Source: Ferruginibacter sp.
GTDB lineage: Bacteria > Bacteroidota > Bacteroidia > Chitinophagales > Chitinophagaceae
Reading direction: 5' to 3'
Length of the DNA stretch: 64,000 bases
Assembly (NCBI GenBank): GCA_039922375.1
Contig: JBDSAA010000211.1
Coordinates: 25,305-89,304 of the forward strand
The notes below the pieces were generated by a model that was not told the DNA's origin, ran no database searches, and saw only the letters and a program-made list of their open reading frames with translations. The position numbers were made by a program, and so were the translations under genes. Position 1 is the stretch's first letter. Each line of letters begins with the position of its first letter. This document shows positions 40,415-64,000 of the stretch, piece after piece.

Positions 40415-41464
40415 ATGAAAATAAGCTTGTCTAAATACTGGATTTGTCAGTTGGCTGGATGGGGTGCCAATTTTGCGATATCAGTTTTTTATTATTTAAA
40501 CCTGTCCATTCGTAAGATCGACAACTTTTATATTCTCATTACTATTAGTGTGGTGCTGGGGGTTTTGTTTACGCATATCATGCGGATGATCATCAAAGAA
40601 TATCAGTTCCTCAATAAGCCCATCACCAAACAGATCCTTTATTTTGTTATTGTAACCATCATATTTGCCATTCTGTATGCCTGTGCAGATGTCGGCCTCG
40701 AGAAAATATTTAACCTGCGGGATAAGGGAGCGCCAAAAATTTCTGTACTAAATGAAATCACCCGGAACTCTATCAATAATTTCTTCCTTCTCTTTATTTG
40801 GAACCTTTTATACTACACTTTTCATTATGTAGAACGCACCCGGCGCCAGGAGGTTGATACCTTAAAATTGCAATCCCTTGTAAAAGAGCTGGAATTAAAA
40901 ACGATCAAGTCGCATATCAATCCTCATTTTATTTTTAATGCATTGAATAGCATACGGGCTCTGGTGGACGAAAATCCGTCGAGAGCCAGAACTGCCATAA
41001 CTGAATTAAGCAATATTTTGCGCAGCAGCATGCAAACTGAAAAAATGGAAACAGTTCCCCTTGAAAGTGAGCTGAATATTGTGAAGGATTACCTGGCACT
41101 GGAAAAAATGCGCTTTGAAGAAAGATTAAATATAGAAATGATCATCGACGAAGACACGCTCTCACAACCTGTGCCGCCGATGATGCTACAAACACTGGTA
41201 GAAAATGCGATCAAACATGGTATTAGTAAAAAAATAGATGGGGGAACTATTAGGGTTAGTTCGGATTTCGTAGAAAATCACCATGAATTGGTTGTGCAAA
41301 ACTCTGGTCAATTAGGTCTGTATATTAATGAAAACGGATTTGGAGTGAGGAGTACTCAGGACAGGTTAAACCTGCTTTACCAGGGAAAGGCAACTTTCGC
41401 CATCAAAAATCTTGATGACGACATGGTGGAGTCTAGAATAACAATGCCCCTTGTTGCCGTTTAA
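40415..41464 (+). CDS. LytS/YehU-type sensor histidine kinase
   Basis: Four N-terminal TM helices, His_kinase motif SHINPHFIFNALNSI, and HATPase N-box LVENAIKHG. Confidence 0.85.
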   Translation: MKISLSKYWICQLAGWGANFAISVFYYLNLSIRKIDNFYILITISVVLGVLFTHIMRMIIKEYQFLNKPITKQILYFVIVTIIFAILYACADVGLEKIFNLRDKGAPKISVLNEITRNSINNFFLLFIWNLLYYTFHYVERTRRQEVDTLKLQSLVKELELKTIKSHINPHFIFNALNSIRALVDENPSRARTAITELSNILRSSMQTEKMETVPLESELNIVKDYLALEKMRFEERLNIEMIIDEDTLSQPVPPMMLQTLVENAIKHGISKKIDGGTIRVSSDFVENHHELVVQNSGQLGLYINENGFGVRSTQDRLNLLYQGKATFAIKNLDDDMVESRITMPLVAV

Positions 41465-41532
41465 GCCATAATTATTAATTTCGATTATCCACAAATGACA
41501 GTTGCGATTACACAAACCAATAAAATTCTTTT

Positions 41533-42261
41533 ATGCATAAAGCAATTATTATCGACGATGAGCGGTTAGCCAGGAACGAGTTAAAAAAGCTTTTACTTGA
41601 CTTTCCGGATGTGGAAGTAATAGATGAAGCGGCAAATGCTACCGAAGGCATTGAGAAAATTGATGCATTAAACCCGGACCTTATATTTTTAGATATACAA
41701 ATGCCGGGTAAAACGGGGTTTTCCATGCTACAGGAACTAGATAAAGCGCCACATGTAATTTTTACCACGGCTTATGATGAGTATGCGTTAAAAGCGTTTG
41801 AAGTAAATGCATTGGATTATTTAATGAAGCCCATAGAGCCTAAGCGGTTGGCAGACGCATTACAGAAGTTACAGCAGGCAGAAGAGAAGGAATTGGCTGC
41901 CCAGCAGGCGTTTAATCGCGGACTGCTAACAGAGAAAGACCAGGTATTTGTAAAAGATGGGGAACGCTGCTGGTTTGTAAAACTCTCCGAAGTAAGGCTA
42001 TTTGAAAGCGTTGGCAACTATGCAAAAGTATTTTTTGCCGGAAACAAACCCTTGATACTAAAATCGCTCAATGCACTTGAAGAACGCCTCGACGAAAAAA
42101 CGTTTTTCCGGGCAAACCGCAAGCACATAGTAAACATGCGCATGATTGAAAAAATTGAACCTTATTTCAACGGTGGTTTATTACTTGATTTGCAGGGTGG
42201 AGAAAAGGTGGAAGTGAGCAGGCGCCAGGCAGTCAAATTTAAAGAGATGATGAGTTTGTAA
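41533..42261 (+). CDS. LytTR-family response regulator
   Basis: Receiver (IIIDDE, FLDIQMPG, KPI) plus a LytTR DNA-binding C-terminus. Confidence 0.9.
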   Translation: MHKAIIIDDERLARNELKKLLLDFPDVEVIDEAANATEGIEKIDALNPDLIFLDIQMPGKTGFSMLQELDKAPHVIFTTAYDEYALKAFEVNALDYLMKPIEPKRLADALQKLQQAEEKELAAQQAFNRGLLTEKDQVFVKDGERCWFVKLSEVRLFESVGNYAKVFFAGNKPLILKSLNALEERLDEKTFFRANRKHIVNMRMIEKIEPYFNGGLLLDLQGGEKVEVSRRQAVKFKEMMSL

Positions 42262-43210: not shown

Positions 43211-43648
43211 ATGGCTTTCGTAACCATCAAATACGCAAATAAAGTAAATTTGAGTATGAATGTGGAGGCGGAAATAAAATTTAAAACAGCACGGAGTGGT
43301 GGCAAAGGAGGACAAAATGTAAATAAAGTGGAGACAATGGTAGAAGGATATTGGGATATTGCCTCCTCTTTACTGTTGAGCGAAACGCAAAAAGCACTGA
43401 TTACAGAAAAACTAACCAATAAAATTACAGCACAAGGCTACCTGCTAATAAAAAGCCAGACTGAACGCACCCAATTGGGAAATAAGGAGGAGGTGATTAA
43501 AAAAATGAACTTACTAGTTACCCTGGCTTTGATAGTGCAAAAAAAAAGAAAGCCAACCAAACCGGGTAAAGCTGCAAGAGAAAAAAGAATTGAAGCAAAA
43601 AAGAAAATGGGTGTAATAAAGCAAACACGCATGAAAATAAAACAATGA
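43211..43648 (+). CDS. arfB: Alternative ribosome-rescue peptidyl-tRNA hydrolase ArfB
   Basis: RSGGKGGQNVNKVET GGQ motif and a basic C-terminal tail, about 140 aa. Confidence 0.85.
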   Translation: MAFVTIKYANKVNLSMNVEAEIKFKTARSGGKGGQNVNKVETMVEGYWDIASSLLLSETQKALITEKLTNKITAQGYLLIKSQTERTQLGNKEEVIKKMNLLVTLALIVQKKRKPTKPGKAAREKRIEAKKKMGVIKQTRMKIKQ

Positions 43649-43651
43649 TTT

Positions 43652-44419
43652 ATGATACGCTCTTCTAACTTTTTTTTATCAGTTTGTTCGGCCATCTTAT
43701 TATTAAGTAGCTGTGTAGGAAAGGCACCCCTTTATATAAAAGGGAAGGTAAAACTCACGTTTCGCAATATGGTCAGTGGCAGTCCGATGGCATTAAATAC
43801 ATCCGTTTACACCAATCCCTTTGCGGAAACTTACACCATTTCAAAATTTAAGTATTATATCAGTAATGTAAAATTGGGTTTAAGTGGCGTACCCACCACT
43901 GCAACTGATAAAGATGGCTACCATTTGGTAGATCAAAGTTTGCCGGAAAGCCTGAGCTTTAGTTTCGAAGCCGACGAAGGATCATTCGTAACCCTTAGCT
44001 TTTTAATAGGAGTGGATAGTATCAGAAATGTAAGCGGAGCACAAACAGGCGCCTTGGATCCCTTAAAAGATATGTTTTGGACATGGAATAGTGGGTATAT
44101 TATGGCAAAGATGGAAGGCACTTCTCCGCAATCGAACCAGGCGGGCAACAAAATAGAATACCATATAGGGGGTTTTTCAGGAGCTAATAATGCACTTAGA
44201 TATGTGTCGTCCATTTATCCGAATGGCAAAACAGTGGCAATAAGGAGTGGGCAAACCAGTGAAATAATTCTAGAGGCAGATTTTAATAAATGGTGGCAGA
44301 CGCCAAACGACATAAAAATTAAAGACTTGCCTGTATGTACTACTCCCGGAGTGCTTGCAATAAAGGTAGCGGATAATTACAGCGATATGTTTAGAATTGT
44401 TGATGTCGTGAATCACTAA
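43652..44419 (+). CDS. MbnP-like lipoprotein (putative copper-binding partner of the adjacent di-haem peroxidase)
   Basis: Lipobox LLSSC, about 250 aa. The call rests mainly on tight pairing (6-nt gap) with a MbnH/MauG-like di-haem enzyme. Confidence 0.55.
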   Translation: MIRSSNFFLSVCSAILLLSSCVGKAPLYIKGKVKLTFRNMVSGSPMALNTSVYTNPFAETYTISKFKYYISNVKLGLSGVPTTATDKDGYHLVDQSLPESLSFSFEADEGSFVTLSFLIGVDSIRNVSGAQTGALDPLKDMFWTWNSGYIMAKMEGTSPQSNQAGNKIEYHIGGFSGANNALRYVSSIYPNGKTVAIRSGQTSEIILEADFNKWWQTPNDIKIKDLPVCTTPGVLAIKVADNYSDMFRIVDVVNH

Positions 44420-44425
44420 AAAAAT

Positions 44426-45487
44426 ATGAAATTTAAAATATTCATATCATTAATTATCTTTCTCAGCGCTACGGTATTCTTTTTAGACTCATGTAAAAAA
44501 GGCGATATAATAAAGAACGATACTGGTTATCATCCAGTCTCTTTAAAATTTTCAGTGCCTGCCGGTTGGCCGCAGCCACCTACTGATATTTTTAAATCCA
44601 ATCCGTTAACGGAGGAAGGTTTTCAATTAGGTAGAAAATTATTTTACGATGGAAGGTTGAGTAAGGATGGTAATTTTCCCTGTGCCAGTTGCCACCAGCA
44701 ATTTGCTGCATTTGCTACATACGACCATCAGTTCAGTCATGGTTCCGATAATACGTTTGGCACCCGCAATGCACCGGCCCTTTTTAATTTAGCATGGATG
44801 AAAGAAATGCATTGGGATGGAGGCATTAAACATATTGAATTGCAACCGCTGGCGCCTATCACCAATATCAATGAGATGGCGGAGACGATTGATAATGTGC
44901 TAAAGAAACTAAACATCGACAGTTCTTACAAGAGGATGTTCAAAGCGGCCTTTGGAGACAATACCATTACCAGCCAGCAAATGCTGAAAGCTTTGGCACA
45001 ATTTACAGGAAGCATACAATCTTACAACAGTAAATATGACCAGGTAAAACGCGGCAAGGCAAGCTTTACCGTAGCCGAGTTGAACGGATACAACGCCTTC
45101 AAATCAAAATGCAATACATGCCATACTGAGCCCTTGTTTACTGATAATTCTTTTCGTAACAATGGCCTTACACTTGACGCGTTTTTACAAGATAAGGGGC
45201 GAATGGGCATTACAGGGGATCGCAATGATTCCCTAAAATTTAAAGTGCCGGGTTTAAGAAACGTGTCGCTTACCTTCCCTTATATGCATGATGGCAGGCG
45301 CTTTTCTCTTTCCCAGGTAATAGAGCATTACCGTTCGGGAATTGAAATAAACCAACCCACACTTGATCCGCTGTTAAAAAACAGGATTGCTATTACCAAC
45401 CAGCAAAAAATCGATCTGATCGAATTTTTAAATGCCCTTACAGATCAGGTATTGTTACAGGATAAAAGATTTGCACAACCTTTCTAA
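44426..45487 (+). CDS. Di-haem cytochrome c peroxidase family protein (MbnH/MauG-like)
   Basis: Two CxxCH motifs (CASCHQ, CNTCHT) and the PSLRNV-like PGLRNV, with a typical CCP length. Confidence 0.85.
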   Translation: MKFKIFISLIIFLSATVFFLDSCKKGDIIKNDTGYHPVSLKFSVPAGWPQPPTDIFKSNPLTEEGFQLGRKLFYDGRLSKDGNFPCASCHQQFAAFATYDHQFSHGSDNTFGTRNAPALFNLAWMKEMHWDGGIKHIELQPLAPITNINEMAETIDNVLKKLNIDSSYKRMFKAAFGDNTITSQQMLKALAQFTGSIQSYNSKYDQVKRGKASFTVAELNGYNAFKSKCNTCHTEPLFTDNSFRNNGLTLDAFLQDKGRMGITGDRNDSLKFKVPGLRNVSLTFPYMHDGRRFSLSQVIEHYRSGIEINQPTLDPLLKNRIAITNQQKIDLIEFLNALTDQVLLQDKRFAQPF

Positions 45488-47810: not shown

Positions 47811-48827
47811 ATGCGTAAGTTGCTCAACAAAATATTCAGGCCATTATTTGTTCGGTTGGCTGACCGGTATGCCTCTGCGCCAAAGCGGGAAGAAGTATTT
47901 AAATCCTTGACCTCTTTATTAAAAAGTATTAATGAACCAAAAGACAAGCGGGGCATTGTGCTTGATATAAATATTGCCACCGATCGTTTTATTATTTTTA
48001 GCGATCAGCATAAGGGCAATAAAAGTCGCGGCGATGATTTTGAAAACAACGAACCTAATTATATCGCAGCACTCAACTATTATCATGCACAATCTTACAA
48101 CTACATTAATTTAGGCGATGCCGAAGAACTATGGAAATATAAGGTTAACCAGGTGATTCCAATGTATAAGGAGGCATTGCAGGCAGAAGCAAAATTCCAG
48201 TCGGTGAACAAATACTACCGCACATTTGGCAATCATGATCTGCTTTGGAAAAATCAATTAGATGTGAACCTTTACCTTAAACCAATTTTTCCGCTGCCCC
48301 TACCCGTGTACGAAGGGTTGGTTCTGCGGACGGTTGTGAATGAGATTCCCATTCAAGTCTTTTTAACGCACGGCCACCAGGGCGACAAGATGAGCGATAA
48401 CAATGCATTGAGCACCTGGCTGGTGGCACATATTTGGGCACCCATACAGCGCTACCTTGGGATCAATTTAAACACGCCTGCTAATGACTTTTATTTGCGG
48501 GATAAACACAACAGGTTAATGTATGAATGGAGCCGCCGTCGAAAAAATATTATTCTCATTACAGGCCATACGCATAAGCCGGTGTTCGCCTCCGGCAAGT
48601 ATACTCCGGCGGTTTCAAATACTATTAATGTAGAAGACACCCCTGCCAATATACAACCCGCTTACTTCAATTCGGGATGCTGTTGTTACAACGATGGCGA
48701 TATTACCGGTATAGAAATAGCAGATGGCTATATCCGTCTTATCAAATGGAAAATGGTTGACAATGTTTCTCAACGGCATGTATTGGAAGAAAAGGAATTA
48801 GGGAAATTGATACAGGATTTTAATTAG
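47811..48827 (+). CDS. Calcineurin-like metallophosphoesterase
   Basis: Ordered motifs SDQHKG, GDAEELW, GNHD, THGHQGD, GHTH. Confidence 0.8.
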   Translation: MRKLLNKIFRPLFVRLADRYASAPKREEVFKSLTSLLKSINEPKDKRGIVLDINIATDRFIIFSDQHKGNKSRGDDFENNEPNYIAALNYYHAQSYNYINLGDAEELWKYKVNQVIPMYKEALQAEAKFQSVNKYYRTFGNHDLLWKNQLDVNLYLKPIFPLPLPVYEGLVLRTVVNEIPIQVFLTHGHQGDKMSDNNALSTWLVAHIWAPIQRYLGINLNTPANDFYLRDKHNRLMYEWSRRRKNIILITGHTHKPVFASGKYTPAVSNTINVEDTPANIQPAYFNSGCCCYNDGDITGIEIADGYIRLIKWKMVDNVSQRHVLEEKELGKLIQDFN

Positions 48828-48872
48828 GCTGATTAATTTGCTACAGAGTAGTTATGCTTCTAAGCCTCCCCC

Positions 48873-48919
48873 TAAAAAAAAGAACTTCCACAGCTATTGG
48901 ATTGATAGCGTGTGGAAGT
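48873..48919 (-). terminator. Intrinsic terminator of unit A
   Basis: Minus strand reads ACTTCCACACGCTAT caatcca ATAGCTGTGGAAGT tc TTTTTTTT. Confidence 0.8.
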
Positions 48920-49026
48920 ACAATCTAAAACCGTTTTACGGATTTTATGGGATCATCAAAATCTTTGAGGGGTTACCTCCCAGAAAAAACTACCAAATAA
49001 TTTATTCCTGGTTTCAGTGTGTCCGG

Positions 49027-49310
49027 TCTTTTCGATGTCTCACGACATAGCTTTAGGATATTGGATGCGTTTGGTTTTTGGGTCATCATCGCTTTTTACG
49101 GCATAGTCCCGTGATTGGATTTTTTAGTTTTCTGTAGGTTTAGGATTCAGGTTTTTGAGTCATCATCGCTTTTAACAGCATAGTCTCCGGATATTGTTTT
49201 TTAGTCTTCAGTAGGATTTAAGATCTTGGTTTCGAGTCATTATCACTTTTTACAGCATAGTCTCAGAATATTCAATTTAGCAGGTCTTTTTTAGGATTTA
49301 ATTTCTAAAG
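49027..49310 (-). repeat. Tandem repeat array of unit A (4 copies; starts near 49033, 49080, 49157 and 49234; period 77 nt for the full copies)
   Basis: Plus-strand core g(a/g)gtcatcatcgctttttac(a/g)gcatagtc recurs. The copy nearest the terminator and the copy nearest the promoter are degenerate. Confidence 0.85.
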
Positions 49311-49344
49311 AAATTGTCTGTTGTTATTCATTCAACTTCTGATA

Positions 49345-49380
49345 CAAAGATGCGATGGTTTGGAATCGCAAACAATAGCA
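49345..49380 (-). promoter_or_regulatory. Promoter of unit A (-33 TTG within TGCTATTGTT, 20-nt spacer, -7 box CAtcTTTG)
   Basis: Minus strand reads tgctaTTGtttgcgattccaaaccatcgCAtcTTTGtatcag. Units B and C have the same geometry and the same 10-mer. Confidence 0.6.
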
Positions 49381-49872
49381 TAAGCGCTTTGTTTTTCATC
49401 GGATAGCCAATGCTGCCCGTGTAGTGATAATTCTATACATTCAACTATGTCGGGCTATTTTACTTGTTTCCAGTCTTTATTGTAATGGTTATTTGGGAGA
49501 ACATTCCGGCGATACATTGCCCGGGATATTTCGTTTGATTAGGCAAAGCCAGGCTTAGAGGATAAATATCAGGAAATGCGATGTAGTAACTATACTTTGC
49601 AAAGGATAAAACCGTCAGTTTCGATTTGCTTTAACCTCAGTGGAAAAATTCTGTTTAGTATATCAACCTTGTTACCTTGTTTAACATTCGTAATAAGGTA
49701 ATAAGGTCCATCGCTCGTCTGATTTGTTTCTTTATACAAATCACTATTTTTTCCCTCGCGAAGTACAATTAAAATGGAGTTTTTGTTGTTCAGCATTTTT
49801 GTTATCAAAAACCGGATTGGCACAAGAGTTCATTGTGATAATATTTCCTGATTGAGTATGGAGGCGGCTACC

Positions 49873-49919
49873 TAAAAAAAAACTCCCACAGCTATTGGTT
49901 TTTCATAGCGTGTGGAAGT
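49873..49919 (-). terminator. Intrinsic terminator of unit B
   Basis: Minus strand reads ACTTCCACACGCTAT gaaaaacca ATAGCTGTGGGAGT followed by nine T. Confidence 0.8.
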
Positions 49920-50031
49920 CAGTCTAAAACCATTTTACCGGTTTTATGGGATCTTTTTAATTCTTTGAGGGGTTGCCTCCCAGAAAAAATTACCAAATAA
50001 TTTATTCCTGGTTTCAGTGTTTTAGGTCTTT

Positions 50032-50400
50032 TACCATCATCGCCTTGCGGCATAGGCTTAGGATATTGGATTCGTTCGGTTTTTTGGGTCATCATCGCTT
50101 TTTACAGCATAGCCCCGGTTGTTGGATTTTTTAGTTTTCTTTCGGTTTGGACTTGGTTTTTTTGAGTCATCATCGCTTTTTACAGCATAGTCCCGGTTGT
50201 TGGATTTTTTGGTTTTCTTTCGGTTTGGACTTTGGTTTTTTGAGTCATCATCGCTTTTTACGGCATAGTCTCAGGATGTTTAATTTAACTGGTCTTCTTT
50301 AGGATTTTTGATTCTTGGTTTTTTTGAGTCATCATCGCTTTTTATAGCATAGTCTCAGGATGTTGTTTTTTTGGTCTTTTTTAGGATTTAGGTTCTAAGA
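50032..50400 (-). repeat. Tandem repeat array of unit B (5 copies; starts near 50032, 50086, 50164, 50242 and 50326; periods 54, 78, 78 and 84 nt)
   Basis: The copies at 50086 and 50164 are nearly identical over 78 nt. All copies share the core gagtcatcatcgctttttacagcatagtc. Confidence 0.9.
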
Positions 50401-50430
50401 AGTGTCAGTATTACTCTTTCACTTCTGACA

Positions 50431-50466
50431 CAAAGATGCGTTGGTATTTGTTGGTAAACAATAGCA
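50431..50466 (-). promoter_or_regulatory. Promoter of unit B (-33 TTG within TGCTATTGTT, 20-nt spacer, -7 box CAtcTTTG)
   Basis: Minus strand reads tgctaTTGtttaccaacaaataccaacgCAtcTTTGtgtcag. Confidence 0.6.
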
Positions 50467-50721
50467 TTATCGCCCTTTTTTGCTCGTAGAGTAATTACTG
50501 CCGACGTAGTAACACTTCTATACATGCCGATGTAATACTACGTTCATGAGACAGGGATAATACGAGGATGGGTTAACATTATAGGAATATGAGTTGGCTG
50601 CGGCCGGCATTACTGTACTGACTCCCAATGAACTAACGCAGTAAAAGCAATATGGATAAAATTAAAGGCCAGTCCCTGGTGAATAATAAACGCCGGAAAA
50701 AAACGTACAGCATACAATGCA

Positions 50722-50763
50722 GAAAAAAAATTCCACGGCTTATAATTTATAGCCTGTGGAAGT
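50722..50763 (-). terminator. Intrinsic terminator of the 1203-aa histidine kinase gene
   Basis: Minus strand reads ACTTCCACAGGCTAT aaatta TAAGCCGTGGAA followed by eight T. The stem sequence matches the family seen in the unit A, B and C terminators. Confidence 0.8.
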
Positions 50764-50806
50764 AAATTTATTATTACAGGTTAAAAAAACTATTGTGAAA
50801 ATATTA

Positions 50807-53800
50807 TTAATAGTAATGCATCATCTTATCGCTTCCGTCGCTTACAGGGATTGTAAAGTGGAAAACACTTCCTTCCAATGGCACTGACTCTACCCATATT
50901 TTACCATGATGCAATTCTACTATTTTTTTGCAATGAGATAAACCTATGCCTGAGCCATGGTATTCTGTACGGGTATGCAGCCGCTGAAAAATAACAAATA
51001 TCCTTTCGCTGTGAACCTTGTCGATGCCAATGCCGTTATCCGCAAATGCAAAATTCCAATAGCCATCACTTTTATCCACCGTTATTTTTATTACCGGTGC
51101 TACACCAGGTTTGCTGAACTTTATAGCATTGATAAGCAGGTTTTGAAACAACTGCTTTATTTCCGTTGGATAACCACTGATGGTGGGTAATTCCTCCGAG
51201 ATAACTTCTGCTCCTGAATCGCCTATCGCTTTATAAAGATCTGCAAGAACATGTTGCAGAACCAGGTTACAATCTATGCTCTCCAGCTCTTTCATTGTCC
51301 CTATCCTTGAATAATCAAGCAAATCTTTTATAAGTGTTTTCATCCTGTCAGAAGAATCAATTATAAATTCGAGGTACTTATCAGCTTTTTCATCCAGCCT
51401 GCCCCGGTACTGCTGCTGAAGCAGTTTCACAAAGCTGGATGTAGTACGGAGCGGTTCCTGCAAATCGTGTGAAGCCACGTAAGCAAACTGCTCCAGTTCC
51501 ATATTTTTTCTTTTCAATTCCTTATTTTTTGACTCAAGCCTTGCTTCAGACTTTTGTAGAAGCGCCTCATCCAGCTTCCGCTTGGTGATGTCTGTGATCA
51601 TCGCGAGACCACCAATAAAATGATCTTCTTTATTTAAGATAGGTGAAGCCGATACACTCGTCCAGATAAGTTTGCCGCTTTTAGTTTTAAAAGGCAGGTC
51701 TATACTTTCTGATAACCCTGCCCTTCTTTTTTGCAAAGCAGGTATTATTATTTTCCTGTCGGCTTCTTCCATAAAATAAGTGATGTGTTTACCAACCATC
51801 TCTTCTGCAGAATACTCAAGTATCGCACACATATTTTCATTCACAAAGAGGCTAAAGTCGTTCTCATCTGTCACCCAAATACCCTCCTGAGCAGTTTCCA
51901 CTATCTGGCGGTAACGTTCTTCGCTAATTTTTAACCTGGCTTCCGCTTCTTTTCTTTCGCTGATATCTACGATCATTCCATCACATATCTCTTCCCCTGT
52001 TATCGGGTCTTCAAATAAAGAAATATTTTCTATCACATGCAATGGCTTGCCCTTCCCTGTCTTCAACACCACTTCCAAATTGTAGAGCTTTTTTTGTTCC
52101 CGTAGCGCTGATATTAAATTCCTTCTTTCGGTAGTTGTAAAATAAAACGCTGCGGCATTGGTTTGCAATACCTCCTGTGGAGACGCATAGCCAAGAATAT
52201 CCGCAAATGCCTGGTTACAAGTAATTATTTTACCCGCAATATTTGTTTGAAAAATTCCGGCAAGGTTGTGTTCGAATAAAGTGCGGTACCGACGCTCGCT
52301 TTCTGCCACATGCAGTTCTGTTTTTTTCCGTTCGGTAATGTCCACGATGGCGCCAATAACCCGAACAGGTTTTCCGAAATCATCCCGTATTACATAGGCT
52401 CTGTCCAATACAGTTCCATACACACCTTCTCTTATTTCATATCTAAATTCATTTTCCCAAAAGTTGACTGTATTTTTTCTTATTTTTCTAAGCCTTCCAA
52501 TAACAGTGTCCCTGTCATCCGGGTGTACTTTTTTAGTCCATTCATATAAATCCGGCACCGGCATATTTTTATCATAACCAAGCAGCTTAAAAAAGCCTTC
52601 ATTCCACCACACATCTTCAGTTAAAAGATTCCAATCCCAAATTGCGTCGTTGGTGGCTTGTGACAGCCTTTGAAATCTTTCTACAGATTCCCGGATATTT
52701 TTTTCGGCATTCCTTCTTTCAGTGATATCCCTAACGATGGTAATAACACGGCCATCAGAAAGCCTTTTCACTGTAATATCCACAGGGATGAGTGTTCCTT
52801 TTTTATTTAAAATATTTTTTTCAAAAGCTATCTTTTCACCTCTTAATAATTTTTGCTTACTGGCTTGGGTGGCCATTTCTGCTCCTAAAATAATTTCAGT
52901 AATATTAATTTGTCCGATTTCTTCCTTTGTATACCCCAGCAAATCACATCCACTTTGGTTGACATCTGTTAATTTACCATCGGGTGTATTTATAAAGATG
53001 GCATCCGATGCCTGCTCTACCAACGAGCGGTGTTTTTCTTCTCCTTCATTAATTAACTGTTCCGATTTCTTACGGGCAGTAATGTCCACCATTATACCTC
53101 TTAGAAATTGTGTGCCGTCCTCGTTTAAAATCACTGATACAATATCCTGCAACCATACAATACTACTGTCTGCCGCTATCATCCTGTATTCAAATTCATG
53201 CGATTTTCTTTCGCTGGTGTACTGCATGCAAATGGATACCGCTGTTTCCCTGTCATCCGGATGTATGTGGTTGGGCCAGAAAAGGGGCGACTCGATCCAT
53301 TCCGAAACAGGGTATCCAAGCAATGCCTCCGCACGTTTACTTACAAAACTAAATTGAAAGGTTGCCGCATTTGCTTCCCACACAATGCCATTAACAGTAT
53401 TTACAAGGTTTTGAAAATTTTGCTCAGATTTCTTTACCTGCTCTTCTACTATTTTCCTGTCGGTAATATCGTGCACAGACCCAATGATCATAATGCAATT
53501 GTTTTTTTCATCCAATACAGGATCGATCGTTACAATGCCCGTTTTAATACCGGTAGGATACGCTGTGGTTTCCTCCCAGTTCACTGTTTTTTTTTCTGTA
53601 GCTGCTTCTGTGTATTTTTCCAATGCAAGTTCCAGTGACGGAGATGGGATTACTTCTTCTATATATTTTCCCTCAACCTGTTTCCTGGATAAACCAGTAG
53701 TAGTTAAAAAAGAACTGTTTACTGAAACAAACTTAAACCGGCTGCTACTTTCTACGCTCAACATGAAAATGCTATCCACCACCGTGTTATAAATAAGGTC

Positions 53801-54512: not shown

Positions 54513-54830
54513 TCAAATGCTCGTTAATGGTTTGTTCTCGAAGCCTGCAACCATTGGAATATTATCAGCATGTAGTTTATCATCAGGGTTAAAAGATGAG
54601 CTGAACATAATAGGCATATTGATATCCAGGGATATTAGCTCGGGATACTGCAAGTCCCGCATTTTATCATCAAGCTCTGCTGTGTCTATCAGATATTTCA
54701 ATGCCTTTTTACCACTGTCTTCTATTTGAATATGATGTGTGCATCCGGCTTCCTCCAATAGCATATTGTTGATAAAATTATTTGATTCATCATCATCAAT
54801 AAGCAGGATACAGTTTAATTTTTTTTTCAT
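54513..54830 (-). pseudogene. Degenerate stand-alone receiver. It has an internal deletion of about 27 aa and a premature stop relative to its two paralogs.
   Basis: MKKKLNCILLIDDDE...LDINMPIM then FSSSFNPDD...GFENKPLTSI*. The alpha3-beta4 segment present in the 142- and 156-aa paralogs is missing. The tail homologous to KLEAILEKY is interrupted by in-frame stops. Confidence 0.5.
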
Positions 54831-55309: not shown

Positions 55310-55738
55310 TTAAACAAATACAGATAATAAATATTTTTCTAAGATTGCTTCTAACTTTTTTGCTGTTAAAGGTTTATGCTCAAAACCTGAGATCTGCGGG
55401 AGGTTTGCTGCCTTCAATTCATCTTCAGGAAACAATGAAGTGGTGAGCATTACTACGATGGTTTTATCAGTGGTGTTTATTGCTTTATATTCCTCTAAAA
55501 ACTCCCATCCATTCATAGCCGGCATATTTATGTCAAGAAAGATAAGATTGGGCACAGGATAGTGACCACTATTATCTTTTTCCACCTCGCTCTTTGTTAA
55601 GTACTCCAATGCTTCAGCACCGCTTTCGGCAATTTTAATATGCTCCGTGCAACCTGATTCTTCAAGCATCATTCGGGTAAAAAAGTTGGTCGCCTCGTCA
55701 TCATCAATTACAAGTATGCAGTTCAATTTGTGTTTCAT
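55310..55738 (-). CDS. Stand-alone CheY-like receiver (no output domain)
   Basis: DDD acidic pocket, phospho-acceptor in FLDINMP, MLTTS, KPLT. Confidence 0.9.
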   Translation of the reverse strand: MKHKLNCILVIDDDEATNFFTRMMLEESGCTEHIKIAESGAEALEYLTKSEVEKDNSGHYPVPNLIFLDINMPAMNGWEFLEEYKAINTTDKTIVVMLTTSLFPEDELKAANLPQISGFEHKPLTAKKLEAILEKYLLSVFV

Positions 55739-59034: not shown

Positions 59035-59505
59035 CTAATTACTTTTATCCCCCACGAATGCCAGTTTACCAGTACTGTCATCCCTCGAGAAATGCTTTTG
59101 CAATATTCTTTCCAGCTTCCCAATTGTTATTGGCTTATTCTCAAAGCCCGAAATTTCAGGCATGCTTTCAGCCCTTTCCCTATCTTCCGGAAAAAGAGAA
59201 GTAGTTAACATAACTGTCATCACTTTGCCCTGTATTTCCTTGTCAAGCTTTTTATATTCTTCTAAAAATTCCCAGCCATCCATCGCAGGCATATTGATGT
59301 CAAGCAATATTAGGTCAGGGCAGGGGTAATAATTTTCGTCACACCCATTTTTATGACTGGTCAACAGGTATGCCAGTGCCTCTTTGCCGCTTTCCACCAT
59401 TTTTATATATTGTGCGCACCCGGCTTCTTCCAATATGATCCGGGTAAAAAAGTTAGTAGCCTCGTCATCGTCAATTACAAGTATGCAATTCAATTTATAT
59501 TTCAT
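59035..59505 (-). CDS. Stand-alone CheY-like receiver (no output domain)
   Basis: Paralog of 55310..55738 (MKYKLNCILVIDDDEATNFFTR..., LLDINMP, MLTTS, KPIT). Confidence 0.9.
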   Translation of the reverse strand: MKYKLNCILVIDDDEATNFFTRIILEEAGCAQYIKMVESGKEALAYLLTSHKNGCDENYYPCPDLILLDINMPAMDGWEFLEEYKKLDKEIQGKVMTVMLTTSLFPEDRERAESMPEISGFENKPITIGKLERILQKHFSRDDSTGKLAFVGDKSN

Positions 59506-62500
59506 CAGTTATTATTTTTATGAATGGTAAAATGAAATATGCACCCTTCTCCTGGTGCAGATTCTACCCAAATTTTTCCTTTATGTAGTTCTACTATTTT
59601 TTTACAATGCGACAAACCGATACCGGAACCTGCATACTCCTTATTGGTATGCAGCCGTTGAAAAATGTCAAATATTCGCTGGCTGTATTTTTCGTCTATA
59701 CCAATACCATTGTCGCTTATAGTGAATTCCCAATAATGCGCTGCTTGTTGCACATCAATTTTTATTCCTGGTATAACGTCCTTCTTACGGAATTTTATTG
59801 CATTGATCACAAGGTTCTGAAAAAGTAATTTGATTTCTGTTGGGTAACCATCTATCACCGGTAACTCAGCAACTTGTATATCAGCGTTCGCTTCTTTTAT
59901 TGCTGCCATAATATCGGCGAGCATTTCCTGCACCAGTATATTGCAGTCAATTTTTTTCAATTCCATATTTGTTCCAATCCTCGAATAATCCAGCAGGTCT
60001 TTAATTACTACTTTCATCCTTGTGGTGGCTTCTAAAATAAACGCCATATATTTATCCGCTTTCTCATCGATCTTTCCATGATATTGCAGTTGCAGCAATT
60101 CCACAATGCCTGCTGTAGTTCTCAACGGTTCCTGCAGATCGTGTGAAGCTACATAGGCAAACTGCTCCAGTTCTTTATTTTTTATTTTAAGTTCTTTATT
60201 AGCAAGTTCAGCTTCAATCCTCGCATGGTCGGCTTCAAGCCTTGCCTTCTGTTCTTCCTGGGTTGAAAGAGATAATTGCAGTGTTTGTTCCTGCACTTTT
60301 TCTTGTAGTTTTCTTCTTTGTGCTTTAATCGCATTTACCCTGTACCCGTAAAATGCCACCATACCACTGATAATTGCAATGACCATCAACAGCCTGAACC
60401 ACCAGGTTAACCAAAAAGGTGGTTCAATGATGAGTTGAATGCTGATGATATTCTTCGACCAGTTGCCTTCATTATTTAATCCCCTAACCTTGAAAATGTA
60501 TTTACCCGGATCAATATTAGTATAAGTCGCTATACGGCTGGTTCCGGCTTCATGCCACTCTTTATCAAAACCTTCCAGGATATAAGCATATTTCTTTTTC
60601 TCGGGTGTTGTATAATTAAGTGTGGCAAATTCAAAAGAGAAAAAAGTGTTAGAATAAGGCAGCGTAATGGTTTTAACTTCCGCTATATTTTTTCTTAAGG
60701 GAGACGAGTCGGAATGATTGATGGGAACAAGTACTTTCTTATTGAAAGCATTGAATTTTGTAATAACCAGCGGAGGCTCAAAAGCAACGGCTTTAACACT
60801 GTCTGGAAAAAATTGGTTAAAGCCATTAGTGCCGCCAAAATACATTACCCCGGATCTGCTTTTGCAGAACGCATGCATTTTAAATTCATTTGACTGCAAG
60901 CCATCGGATACGCTAAAGTTTTTAAAGACTTTTGTTATAGGATTAAAACGGGAAATGCCTTTGTTGGTACTGATCCACAGATTTTTTTTACTGTCTTCCA
61001 GTATTCCGAAAATCACATTATCAGGAAGGCCGTCTGCCATGGTATAAACTGTAAACCGCCCAGTTTTTTTGTTAAAAAAGTTTAGGCCCACCCTCGTTCC
61101 AATCCATAAATTTTTATCCCCGTCTTCAAAAATTGAACTTAAGCTGTTATTACTAATGCTGTTCTTTGTTTCATCATGTAAAAAACGTGAAAAGGATTTT
61201 GTTTTTTTATCATATAGATTTAAACCGTCGCCGTCGGTGCACACCCATAATTGACCATCGCTATCTTCAAAAATAGAAACAACATAAATGCCTGAAATAC
61301 CATTAGTCCGATTAATAGCATATTGGTGATGCGTGAAGGATTTTTGATCAGCATTTAACAGGTCCAGGCCACCACCAAAAGTGCATACCCAGATATTTTT
61401 ATCCCGGTCTTCAAAGATTTTCCAAACATTATTACTATTTAAGCTCGATGGGTTGCCAGGTTCATTTTTGAAATGCCTGAAGGTTTTGCTAGTTGGGTTA
61501 AATACCGTCATTCCATCTCCCCAGGTTCCGGCCCAGATGTTGCCTTTACTGTCTTCGTGTACAGCCAATACATAATCGCCGCAGATGCTTTTTTTGTTAT
61601 TTTTCTCATGGCGAAAATGGGTAAAGTTGCCTGTTGTGGGGTTAAACACATTCAAGCCGCCCCCATCTGTTCCCAGCCAGATATTTTGTTTAGAGTCCTC
61701 AAAGATGCTGAGCACCTGGTTATTGCTGAGGCTGTTGGGTGACAGCATATGCTTATAATGTGCAAACCTGGCTTTATCCCGGTTTGCCATGTCAATACCA
61801 CCGGTAAAGGTGCCCAGCCACATATTGCTTTTAAGATCCTTATAAACAGAATAAATAGAATTACTGCTGATGCTTTCTCCGTCAATTTCGTCGTGCTTGT
61901 AAGTGGTAAATGAGCCGGCATCATAATTAAAAATAGATAACCCTCCGTTTTCAGTGCCAATCCACAGATTATTCTCAGCATCTTCCGTAATGGCATACAC
62001 AGTATTTGCCGCCACGCTATTTGCATTATTTTCATCGTGTTTAAAATGAGTAAATGCCCCGGTTTCCATGTTAAATAAATCCATTCCTGCACCATCAGTT
62101 CCTACCCATAAACGACGCTTACTATCTTCAAACATGGTGTACACATTATTGCTGCCTATGGAATGTCTGTTCTTTTTATCATGCTGAAAACGAGTAAAGT
62201 TTTTGTTTTTCCTGTTTAGCAAATTGATTCCTCCATTCAGCGTGGCCATCCAGATATTATGGCTCATGTCTTCGAAAATATACCTTATATAAGAATCGCT
62301 GATACTCTTATTGTCGGCCAGGTTATGCGTAAAATGTTCCATTTTATTTGTTACCGGGTCCAGCATATCCAATCCTGCTTCTGTACCAATCCAGATTTTT
62401 CCGTACTCATCCTCAAGTAAGCCATGTACCACATCGTGAGAAATGCTGTTTGCATTTTTCGGGTCATGCGTGTAGTTAGTAAAACTTTCTTTGTTTCGAT

Positions 62501-62831
62501 CGTAGCGGGATACGCCCCCACCAACTGTCGCTATCCACAATTCCCCCGTGTTACTTTCTATAACCTTCATTATGAAATTACTGCCGATACTGTTTTTATT
62601 ATGCGGATCATTTTTATAAAAGGTAAAAGAATAGCCATCATATTTATTCAACCCATCCCTGGTACCGAACCACATAAAGCCACTTTTGTCTTGCATTATA
62701 GAAAGCACGTTGCTATGAGAAAGCCCCTGGTCAAAACCTATATGATCAAAATGTACATGATGGTTTTGCGGATATACAAAAGCACAGCAAGCCAAAAAAA
62801 ATAAGCTGAGTAATACTCGCAAGTTGTTCAT
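59505..62831 (-). CDS. Sensor histidine kinase with a periplasmic two-component-regulator beta-propeller and Y_Y_Y domain
   Basis: Signal peptide, more than 12 repeats of the IWxGTxxGGL propeller motif, Y_Y_Y-like region (YAYILEGFDKEW), one TM helix, coiled coil, H-box FAYVASHDLQEPLR, N/G boxes. Confidence 0.9.
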   Translation of the reverse strand: MNNLRVLLSLFFLACCAFVYPQNHHVHFDHIGFDQGLSHSNVLSIMQDKSGFMWFGTRDGLNKYDGYSFTFYKNDPHNKNSIGSNFIMKVIESNTGELWIATVGGGVSRYDRNKESFTNYTHDPKNANSISHDVVHGLLEDEYGKIWIGTEAGLDMLDPVTNKMEHFTHNLADNKSISDSYIRYIFEDMSHNIWMATLNGGINLLNRKNKNFTRFQHDKKNRHSIGSNNVYTMFEDSKRRLWVGTDGAGMDLFNMETGAFTHFKHDENNANSVAANTVYAITEDAENNLWIGTENGGLSIFNYDAGSFTTYKHDEIDGESISSNSIYSVYKDLKSNMWLGTFTGGIDMANRDKARFAHYKHMLSPNSLSNNQVLSIFEDSKQNIWLGTDGGGLNVFNPTTGNFTHFRHEKNNKKSICGDYVLAVHEDSKGNIWAGTWGDGMTVFNPTSKTFRHFKNEPGNPSSLNSNNVWKIFEDRDKNIWVCTFGGGLDLLNADQKSFTHHQYAINRTNGISGIYVVSIFEDSDGQLWVCTDGDGLNLYDKKTKSFSRFLHDETKNSISNNSLSSIFEDGDKNLWIGTRVGLNFFNKKTGRFTVYTMADGLPDNVIFGILEDSKKNLWISTNKGISRFNPITKVFKNFSVSDGLQSNEFKMHAFCKSRSGVMYFGGTNGFNQFFPDSVKAVAFEPPLVITKFNAFNKKVLVPINHSDSSPLRKNIAEVKTITLPYSNTFFSFEFATLNYTTPEKKKYAYILEGFDKEWHEAGTSRIATYTNIDPGKYIFKVRGLNNEGNWSKNIISIQLIIEPPFWLTWWFRLLMVIAIISGMVAFYGYRVNAIKAQRRKLQEKVQEQTLQLSLSTQEEQKARLEADHARIEAELANKELKIKNKELEQFAYVASHDLQEPLRTTAGIVELLQLQYHGKIDEKADKYMAFILEATTRMKVVIKDLLDYSRIGTNMELKKIDCNILVQEMLADIMAAIKEANADIQVAELPVIDGYPTEIKLLFQNLVINAIKFRKKDVIPGIKIDVQQAAHYWEFTISDNGIGIDEKYSQRIFDIFQRLHTNKEYAGSGIGLSHCKKIVELHKGKIWVESAPGEGCIFHFTIHKNNN

Positions 62832-63349: not shown

Positions 63350-63393
63350 TAAAAAACTTCCACAACTAATGGTTTTTCATAGTCTGTGGAAGT
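63350..63393 (-). terminator. Intrinsic terminator of unit C
   Basis: Minus strand reads ACTTCCACAGACTAT gaaaaacca TTAGTTGTGGAAGT TTTTTATTTTT. Confidence 0.75.
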
Positions 63394-63495
63394 ATAATTT
63401 TGCGAACGTTTTAATAAGTTCACGTAGATCAGGGTGTGTTAGCCATTGTCCCAGAGCAATTTAATAATTTTCTGGTTTGGGTTGCATTTGGTTTT

Positions 63496-63700
63496 GGCCA
63501 TCATCGCTTATTACGGCATAGGCCAGGATATTGGTATTGGTTTTTGGGTCATCATCGCTTCTTACGGCATAGGCCCGGATACTGGTTTTTTGTCTTCTTT
63601 AGTTTTTGGATTGAACTGGTTTTTGGCCATCATCGCTTTTTAAAGCATAAGCCGGATATTGTCTTCCTGGTTTTAATTTGGATACTGGATTTCTATTTTT
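63496..63700 (-). repeat. Tandem repeat array of unit C (3 copies; starts 63496, 63546 and 63625; periods 50 and 79 nt)
   Basis: Plus-strand core gg(c/g)(c/t)catcatcgct(t/a)(a/c/t)tta(c/a)(g/a)gcata(g/a)gcc recurs three times. Confidence 0.85.
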
Positions 63701-63730
63701 ACCGAAGATATCATTCGGTGAATGCTGATG

Positions 63731-63766
63731 CAAATATCAGGCAGTAACAGTTGCTCAACAATAGCA
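63731..63766 (-). promoter_or_regulatory. Promoter of unit C (-33 TTG within TGCTATTGTT, 20-nt spacer, -7 box GAtaTTTG)
   Basis: Minus strand reads tgctaTTGttgagcaactgttactgcctGAtaTTTGcatcag. Confidence 0.55.
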
Positions 63767-64000
63767 ATATTGCTCTTTTTCTTAAACAGAATAAGTACTA
63801 AAATATTAGTATTAATGCTACATTGTTATATGAATTAATACGTGCCTTCTCAAACGTATTATTACGATTATTTATCAATTCATCATCGCTGGACACACCC
63901 AGCTTGTTAAAATAATATTAACACTAGTTTAGTTCTTTCAATTTTTACTTTTTATGAAACCCTCTACAGCTATGGCTGTTAGCGATATTAACTCTCCGAT

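Follow-up and report, generated by a model that had tools for sequence, protein, structure and literature searches.

Unit A and its neighbour unit B

The 64,000-nucleotide stretch of Ferruginibacter sp. DNA analysed here (the window) contains two related tandem-repeat units next to each other on the minus strand, and the second of them, unit A, raises the question of whether it is a gene in its own right and what an RNA built from repeated hairpins might do. On the basis of the letters alone unit A had been described as a paralogous copy of unit B in which promoter, repeats, 3′ domain and terminator are all present. Both our alignment of the two units and the occurrence of a like architecture in other species agree with this description. 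The parts of unit A and of its neighbour are given below; bit scores and E values refer to R1, a covariance model that we built from an alignment of 90 hairpins.

48874-49380, minus strand: unit A as a whole, with promoter, 5′ stem–loop, three canonical repeats and one degenerate repeat, 3′ domain and intrinsic terminator
49381-49470, minus strand: region upstream of unit A, homologous to the region upstream of unit B, with degenerate GTA..TAC sites
49345-49380, minus strand: promoter of unit A, −33 element TGCTATTGTT at 49371-49380 and −7 box CATCTTTG at 49345-49352
49309-49340, minus strand: 5′ stem–loop AGAAGUUG...CAAUUUCU, a predicted fold
49230-49268, minus strand: hairpin A1 with the variant core GUGAUAAUG (53.9 bits, E = 2.8e-12)
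49153-49191, minus strand: hairpin A2, canonical (60.6 bits, E = 4.1e-14)
49076-49114, minus strand: hairpin A3, canonical (60.9 bits, E = 3.5e-14)
49033-49051, minus strand: degenerate fourth repeat, GCUAUGUC-GUGA-GACAUCG, read from the sequence and undetected by R1
48920-49025, minus strand: 3′ domain, in the order single-stranded ACACUGAAA, H1 (48980-49011), H2 (GAGG-UAACC-CCUC, 48967-48979), GAUCCC and H3 (48926-48947)
48874-48919, minus strand: intrinsic terminator ACUUCCACACGCUAU...AUAGCUGUGGAAGU followed by a U-run
49874-50466, minus strand: unit B, a paralogue with five hairpins (50322-50360, 50238-50276, 50160-50198, 50082-50120 and 50027-50063)
50457-50466 and 50431-50438, minus strand: promoter elements TGCTATTGTT and CATCTTTG of unit B

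A pairwise alignment of units A and B, segment by segment, gave an identity of 67% upstream of the promoter, 78% in the promoter, 77% in the array, 90% in the 3′ domain and 92% in the terminator. The similarity is therefore not limited to the tandem repeats, since promoter and terminator modules are shared, and the almost base-for-base match of the 3′ domains that had been seen by eye is borne out. Both promoter boxes are identical in the two units, and so are the distances, 18 nt from the 10-mer TGCTATTGTT to the box CATCTTTG and 20 nt from the TTG to the box; the coordinates listed above agree with the common 10-mer and 20-nt spacer that the sequence-only reading had pointed out. The same reading had assigned four repeats to unit A, with ATAATG in the one nearest the promoter and a degenerate one nearest the terminator. 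R1 indeed finds three matches, the promoter-proximal hairpin A1 having GUGAUAAUG where the canonical hairpin has GCGAUGAUG, and the fourth repeat, next to the terminator, forms a simple hairpin with a GUGA loop and has no GAUGAU internal loop. According to Tandem Repeats Finder the repeat period is 77 nt in unit A (2.6 copies) and 78 nt in unit B (4.2 copies). Unit A is probably the most eroded member of its family. Deviant last repeats also close other units of the family.

The repeated hairpin

Two things were absent from the sequence-only reading, namely a third paralogue in the window (unit C, see below) and the nature of the repeats, every one of which forms a hairpin that covaries and encloses an invariant internal loop.

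The 90 distinct hairpins that were aligned have a common core, (C)UAUGC-NNUAAAAA-GCGAUGAU(G), which is essentially invariant and in which NNUAAAAA is the apical loop. The asymmetric internal loop (5′ UAU, 3′ GAU-RAU) and the A-rich apical loop do not vary, and the hairpin is capped by a two-pair G-C stem with this A-rich loop. The five pairs of the outer stem, in contrast, all vary yet stay paired, with both-sided changes at all five (95 cells in the 90 hairpins); GAG/CUC, GGG/CCC, GAAAC/GUUUC, GAUC/GAUC, GGCC/GGCC and UCGUC/GGCGA are among the pairings observed. In the 90 hairpins 88.7% of the cells are paired compared with 22-39% when the 3′ partners are slid, and the covariation score of 0.374 (shuffled 0.144 ± 0.011) was reached by none of 500 shuffles. 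The stems contain 24 G-U cells, for which no pairing is possible on the opposite strand. The closing pair alternates between C-G and U-A or U-G, 41 of the 90 hairpins have a non-canonical pair (A-A or G-A) next to it, and U12, which is never unpaired, stands opposite G in 81 hairpins and opposite A in 9. From these pair counts it follows that the element is a helix broken by a 3-nt GAU bulge together with U-U and A-A oppositions.

The model R1 proved to be specific for this element. In the window it gave exactly 11 matches, all of them inside units A, B and C, and in 23 loci of the family 128 matches, all in arrays and all on the transcript strand. On 657 kb of unrelated control DNA there was no match, though each control locus carries two GCGATGATGAC words, and in about 230 kb of relevant DNA no isolated hairpin was detected in an mRNA leader. 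The word ACTTCCACA occurs seven times in the window compared with 0.28 occurrences expected. Taken together, the strand bias, the G-U pairs and the repeat periods, which are not multiples of three, point to an RNA and not to a protein or DNA repeat.

Promoter and upstream palindromes

In 18 units the promoter follows the consensus GCT.TTG-N20-GCATCTTTGTATCAGAA. The extended −33 region of the family units is (A)AAAAGAG-GCAATATTGC-like and overlaps the TTG; after a spacer of about 20 nt it is followed by GCATCTTTG and then by TATCAGAA. These elements fit the TTG / TAnnTTTG promoter type known from Bacteroidota, and judged from their position transcription of unit A is likely to start near 49340. 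The 5′ leader UCAGAA(A/G)UUGA is conserved across the units.

It had been suggested that the similarity between units A and B upstream of the −33 element could reflect an activator site. For the family as a whole this suggestion gained support: the 125 nt upstream of 18 promoters contain 32 GTA-N2-6-TAC palindromes, compared with 3.5 ± 1.8 in shuffles. The palindromes are phased by about 22 bp, lying at about −103, −80, −57 and −37 from the TTG, and a GTAnTTA block is conserved at −37 to −31. Phased palindromes of this kind are the pattern of a cooperatively binding dimeric transcription factor, and we infer that such a factor would act here. For unit A itself the suggestion does not hold in the same way, since unit A has no intact GTA..TAC palindrome; unit B has two. 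Lacking them, unit A may be less inducible than unit B or more weakly or differently regulated, and with its lost palindromes and its smaller number of intact hairpins it is probably a weaker or differently regulated copy.

Linkers, 3′ domain and terminator

The transcripts consist of 39-44% A and 16% G and contain 42-57 YC dinucleotides. The linkers between the hairpins are A/C-rich, G-poor and similar to each other, with AACCAAUAUCCU directly 5′ of each hairpin and AAAAA(G)ACC on its 3′ side. Each module of the array consists of AACCAAUAUCCU, predicted to be single-stranded, the hairpin with its covarying outer stem, and AAAAA(G)ACC, likewise predicted to be single-stranded. The repeat periods of the family, 51 to 86 nt, do not come in multiples of three; the basic period is about 55 nt in other species, and the periods of 77-86 nt found in the window look like double modules minus the middle hairpin. 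The number of modules and the period vary by duplication and by loss of hairpins, and repeats are more alike within one unit than they are to repeats elsewhere. On two metagenome contigs we found variant units with plain hairpins in place of the GAUGAU type; their promoter, their 5′ domain, their 3′ domain and numerous AAUAUCC motifs are kept. As these variant units keep AAUAUCC without GAUGAU hairpins, the hairpin may not be the sole or main functional element.

The 3′ domain of the family has the order ACACUGAAA, H1 (CCAGG...CUGG), H2, GAUCCC, H3 and terminator. When 18 units were folded singly, 15-17 of them showed H1, H2 and H3 at matching positions. H2 exists in the versions GAGG/CCUC, GAGGC/GCCUC, GGGA/UCCC, GCG/CGC and GUA/UAC, and the sequence of H3 is different in almost every species. 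On a MAFFT alignment of the 3′ domain, RNAalifold and pair counting gave no significant covariation for H1 and H2, and H3 was unalignable; only the invariant terminator was recovered, whose 9-bp outer stem ACUUCCACA/UGUGGAAGU is the same in all 18 units.

The differences between the 3′ domains of units A and B had been said to cluster in one hairpin in which the fold is kept while the sequence changes. The hairpin in question is H3, which pairs as AAAACCGG-loop-UGGUUUU in unit B and as AAAA(U)CCGU-AAA-ACGGUUUU in unit A, and both versions are predicted to fold. That a fold is kept agrees, at the level of the family, with the recurrence of H2 and H3 at the same positions in singly folded units. 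The covariation of the aligned 3′ domains, however, is not significant, and between A and B the H3 sequences differ by a register shift and by one-sided changes: folding both 3′ domains, we found no classical double compensatory substitution in H3.

Genomic context and distribution

Two further features are needed to place units A and B in their surroundings.

50723-50763, minus strand: terminator belonging to the PAS histidine-kinase gene and homologous to those of the small RNAs (ACUUCCACAGGCUAU...)
63351-63761, minus strand: unit C, a third paralogue with three hairpins (63620-63658, 63542-63580 and 63491-63529)

Unit C was located by simple pattern matching with TATGC-N8-GCGATGATG, a core that recurs in Ferruginibacter and Chitinophagales assemblies, and it shares both the −33 10-mer and the terminator with units A and B. 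The three units, all encoded on the minus strand, enclose a group of signalling genes, the order being unit C, a propeller/Y_Y_Y histidine kinase, a receiver-only protein, a YfiR-like protein, a HAMP-PAS kinase, two small receiver genes (one apparently decayed), a multi-PAS kinase, unit B and unit A. Downstream of unit B there is unit A, and downstream of unit A a convergent metallophosphoesterase gene. The terminator of the kinase gene would, judging from its sequence, insulate unit B from that gene. With this terminator ahead of unit B, and the strong one of unit B ahead of unit A, read-through is unnecessary to explain either unit. Unit A has what is generally expected of a stand-alone small-RNA gene as far as its sequence goes, i.e., a promoter, an intrinsic terminator, no conserved frame and a covarying structure. 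Unit A is thus very probably an independently transcribed non-coding small RNA gene with a predicted transcript of about 465 nt.

Outside the window the same architecture is present in at least five Ferruginibacter/Chitinophagales genomes (among the matches listed) and on 17 metagenome contigs, and promoter and terminator modules are kept in units A, B and C as well as in 25 units of other genomes and metagenomes. The genome-wide search used two GCGATGATGAC words 45-75 nt apart as pattern and gave at least 119 loci, 113 of those listed being unrelated coding repeats. Scanning the metagenomes with the terminator word gave 24 loci, among them 17 true members of the family and 7 chance matches in coding DNA. 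The viral contigs that were scanned contained no array copies. A unit has between one and eight hairpins. Tandem units are common, with up to five in a row, and the loci L106, L111, L136, L141 and L142 have two to five each. The total number of hairpins is 11 in the window and exceeds 25 in one 15-kb metagenome contig. As far as sampled and among the matches listed, the family is confined to Ferruginibacter-like Chitinophagales of soil and freshwater.

Kinases homologous to the PAS/propeller kinases adjoin the arrays in eight loci, and in six other loci the arrays lie downstream of cystathionine beta-synthase and an S41 peptidase. A constantly linked gene for an RNA-binding protein was not found among the neighbours of the family loci, and since there is no constant protein-coding neighbour, synteny provides no candidate for a partner.

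Possible function of the arrays

What could such an RNA do? We tentatively favour the idea that the array RNA is a multivalent decoy, analogous to, not homologous with, CsrB/RsmZ for CsrA and CrcZ for Hfq/Crc, and we consider the chances of this reading to be somewhat short of even. Near-identical sites, structurally presented and in many copies, would bind and titrate a putative RNA-binding factor, most likely a protein that recognises both sequence and structure, and a dimeric regulator bound to the phased GTA-N4-TAC palindromes upstream of the promoter would control the output through transcription. The variable number and period of the modules, together with the likeness of the repeats within one unit, would be expected if the number of sites and not their exact geometry matters. 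Several observations count against a decoy: no gene for an RNA-binding protein is regularly linked to the arrays; the variant units do without the GAUGAU hairpins; and the scan of about 230 kb showed no single hairpin in an mRNA leader, although one would be expected if the titrated regulator had targets as well.

The main alternative, which we regard as unlikely, is a base-pairing regulator or RNA sponge. Here AACCAAUAUCCU, the GAUGAU loops or both would serve as redundant seeds for AGGAUAUUGG-like sites in mRNAs or other small RNAs, and the hairpins would mainly keep the seeds exposed and the RNA stable. Each unit does have six to ten AUCC-containing motifs in G-poor, A/C-rich linkers which are predicted to be unpaired, and the variant units hold on to the linker motifs without GAUGAU hairpins. 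Outside the small-RNA genes, however, the window shows no enrichment of the complement AGGATATTGG: we find one exact extra site at 43345 and, allowing up to one mismatch, 10 sites compared with 5.5 expected. Moreover, the strictest conservation is seen in a structured internal loop and not in a linear seed.

It is improbable, in our estimation, that the arrays are decoys for general machinery such as Rho, ribosomal protein S1 or the 30S subunit (as a mimic of a start site), or an RNase. Rho favours C-rich, G-poor, untranslated RNA, and start sites in Bacteroidota are A-rich and contain AUG. The composition of the transcripts given above and the AUGAUG that follows the A-rich loop in each hairpin would suit such a role. 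But this AUGAUG is part of a conserved internal loop between covarying stems, which is not an open start-site context, and a general factor would not need an invariant core of 20 nt.

The head-to-tail tandem arrangement with its regular periods of 55 or 77-86 nt could also be that of a precursor cut into unit-length RNAs, each made of hairpin and linker and acting singly, as ToxI or CRISPR RNAs do. We hold this to be decidedly improbable: no toxin, nuclease or cas-like gene flanks the arrays, the linkers resemble one another, unlike unique spacers, and each array is framed by conserved 5′ and 3′ domains, as would be expected for one functional transcript.

A repeat acting at the DNA level (a miniature mobile element, a REP-like sequence or an array of protein-binding iterons), or else a leader or tail acting in cis on the neighbouring kinase genes, in either case without a role as free RNA, is very improbable. 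The units do cluster at the histidine-kinase block in eight loci, and the kinase gene ends with a homologous terminator. Against this reading, the stems contain G-U pairs, and promoter and terminator set the strand for every copy; arrays are also found downstream of cystathionine beta-synthase, where the surroundings are unrelated; a conserved promoter belongs to each unit, and a terminator precedes it; and there are neither terminal inverted repeats nor target duplications nor viral copies. That small proteins start at the AUGAUG of each repeat (MMTQK...) can hardly be entertained: two repeats of unit B give similar 23-aa frames, MMTQKTKVQTERKPKNPTTGTML and MMTQKNQVQTERKLKNPTTGAML, but the frames in the window have 7, 8, 14, 16, 21, 23, 38 and 58 aa and are not conserved, the periods of 51-86 nt are not multiples of three, the frame stops after five codons in another species, and the start codons are inside a covarying RNA helix.

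Taking the decoy reading further, the arrays could be the RNA half of a new titration circuit of Bacteroidota, in which a kink-turn-like box-C motif without G-A pairs, present in up to about 25 copies per genome, would sequester a putative global RNA-binding regulator and a sensor-kinase pathway would act via the GTA-N4-TAC sites. We regard this more specific proposal as less likely than not. Little is understood of how Bacteroidota control their genes after transcription, and the well-known hubs are scarce or absent: the phylum is not known to have Hfq, nor is ProQ known to be common in it. CsrA is scarce in Bacteroidota as well (PMC13443453). The arrays, conserved multi-copy RNAs with the build of a molecular sponge, would offer a concrete bait for the missing RNA-binding regulator in environmental Chitinophagaceae, and they are a candidate output of the large PAS/propeller sensor-kinase families of these bacteria. 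The hairpin is a new, very strictly conserved structural motif that is open to structural study. Even without a partner, the arrays constitute a family with clear covariation support that is absent from Rfam. With Rfam 15 no family matched the window at the gathering threshold, nothing meaningful appeared at permissive thresholds, and in the literature that we searched there was no description of such a family, so that the tandem-hairpin small RNAs are apparently undescribed.

Comparison with known systems

Several known systems resemble the arrays in part. With the ToxI RNAs of type III toxin–antitoxin systems they have in common tandem repeats of structured RNA, an own promoter and a terminator. 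ToxI repeats, however, are 36-45 nt long, whereas the array repeats measure 55-86 nt, are imperfect and are accompanied by conserved non-repeat 5′ and 3′ domains. No gene for a toxin endoribonuclease lies downstream of unit A or B and no gene is conserved downstream at the other loci. As regards CRISPR arrays, the linkers are similar to each other and a Pfam analysis showed no cas genes among the neighbours. In the absence of a partner gene and of unique spacers neither the ToxI nor the CRISPR assignment can be upheld.

A closer structural likeness exists to the kink-turn or box C′-D′ K-loop that is bound by L7Ae in archaeal C/D RNAs. The 3′ strand of the array hairpin contains the box-C word AUGAUGA, and the order of elements is that of a C/D kink-turn, with a GAU bulge after a short G-C stem, U-U, G-C and frequently a non-canonical pair. 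A 3-nt bulge as in kink-turns is present, G26-A27-U28 being unpaired between G13-C25 and U12-R29. The tandem sheared G-A/A-G pairs, on the other hand, are not formed, since G/A29 is opposite U12 and A30 opposite A11, invariantly in the 90 hairpins. The partner strand thus reads CUAU and not CUGA, the sheared G-A pairs are replaced by G-U (or A-U) and A-A, and for this reason the hairpin does not belong to the kink-turns. An assignment to the box C/D small RNAs was likewise rejected, because the box-C word is opposed by CUAU and guide sequences are lacking; the best Rfam match to a C/D-box model had E = 2.2 and 14.8 bits compared with a gathering score of 50.

The paralogous small-RNA families of Bacteroides, for example FopS, are also multi-copy, come from the same phylum and are equipped with Bacteroidota-type promoters and intrinsic terminators. 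FopS is reportedly associated with RbpB. The members of such families are short RNAs that act by base pairing and are not known to contain tandem arrays of hairpins; no homology to the arrays was detected.

In function the CrcZ and CsrB/Rsm decoys would be the nearest known systems. The CrcZ, CrcY and CrcX RNAs, the Hfq/Crc decoys of Pseudomonas, are like the arrays A-rich and G-poor, about 400 nt long, and present as paralogous copies with repeated motifs. Moreover, crcZ comes right after the two-component genes by which it is controlled, just as unit B comes right after a sensor-kinase gene. The differences are that CrcZ has unstructured AANAANAA sites and a sigma-54 promoter, whereas the arrays have a conserved hairpin and a TTG / TAnnTTTG promoter. 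Membership in the CrcZ/CrcY family was rejected, there being no Rfam match and the conserved repeat being a hairpin with flanking AAUAUCC and not AANAANAA.

Similarly, an assignment to the CsrB/RsmX/Y/Z RNAs was rejected, as there was no Rfam match at the gathering threshold in the window and none at E ≤ 10 in the region 48700-50900, and the loops of the 90 hairpins read NNUAAAAA and contain no conserved GGA as in the ANGGA apical loops of CsrB/Rsm. Thus in place of the apical-loop GGA the array repeat has the asymmetric UAU / GAU-RAU loop together with an A-rich apical loop. In their overall organization CsrB/CsrC and RsmX/RsmY/RsmZ nevertheless resemble the arrays: both are separate small-RNA genes, each equipped with a promoter and a terminator, occur as several paralogues per genome, carry a variable number of short hairpin sites and have a palindrome upstream, which in the case of CsrB/Rsm is that of a two-component regulator.

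Unit C and variant units of the family

Besides the paralogous units A and B, the window holds a third tandem-hairpin small-RNA gene, and related units that depart from the common architecture are found at family loci outside it.

63351-63761, minus strand: unit C, third paralogue, with the -33 10-mer and terminator of the other units
L136 2700-3170, plus strand: variant unit
L141 9380-9800, reverse-complement coordinates: variant unit

Unit C lies directly upstream of a propeller/Y_Y_Y histidine-kinase gene (59505-62831). Its -33 10-mer is identical to that of the other window units, its -7 box reads GATATTTG, and it has three hairpins with outer stems of the GGCC type; the terminator is the same as in its paralogues and the 3' domain is divergent. 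About 150 nt upstream of the unit C start there is a lone GCGATGATGA word (63880-63889, minus-strand reading), which is not set in a hairpin and is not matched by R1, the covariance model of the hairpin repeat; a lost repeat may have left it behind.

The two variant units keep the family promoter, 5' leader, 3' domain and terminator around a body with numerous AAUAUCC linker motifs and plain hairpins, from which the GAUGAU loops are absent. AGGATATTGG, which is exactly complementary to the linker motif, occurs in the window outside the small-RNA genes at one site only (43345-43354, plus strand), which is intergenic and about 300 nt upstream of an MbnP/MbnH-like gene pair (43652-45487). With a chance expectation of about 0.1 such sites, this single site is not significant on its own.

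Signalling genes near the small RNAs

54513-54830 and 55310-55736, minus strand: between the kinases, two small CheY-like genes of the receiver-only kind
40415-42261, plus strand: LytS-type histidine kinase and LytTR response regulator pair, 7 kb from unit A

The kinases adjoining the small RNAs have receiver-only partners and no others, and therefore the LytTR member of the pair is the nearest DNA-binding response regulator. Judged by eye, part of the receiver fold is missing from the receiver-only gene at 54513-54830; this gene had no Pfam match and is possibly a decaying duplicate.

Terminators and terminator-like structures

50723-50763, minus strand: multi-PAS kinase-gene terminator, ACTTCCACAGGCTAT...GTGGAATTTTTTTT, a homologue of the terminators in the small-RNA genes
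L135 3450-3600, reverse-complement coordinates: 5'-end pairing with U-run, likewise in L106 and L141

The kinase-gene terminator may be what remains of another unit, or else a locally duplicated terminator module. In some units, among them ones in L135, L106 and L141, the 5' end, AGAAGUUGAUUGAUA, pairs with UAUCAGUCAACUUCU, which lies about 120 nt further downstream, and a U-run follows. This arrangement resembles an internal terminator or attenuator preceding the hairpin array and suggests conditional read-through.
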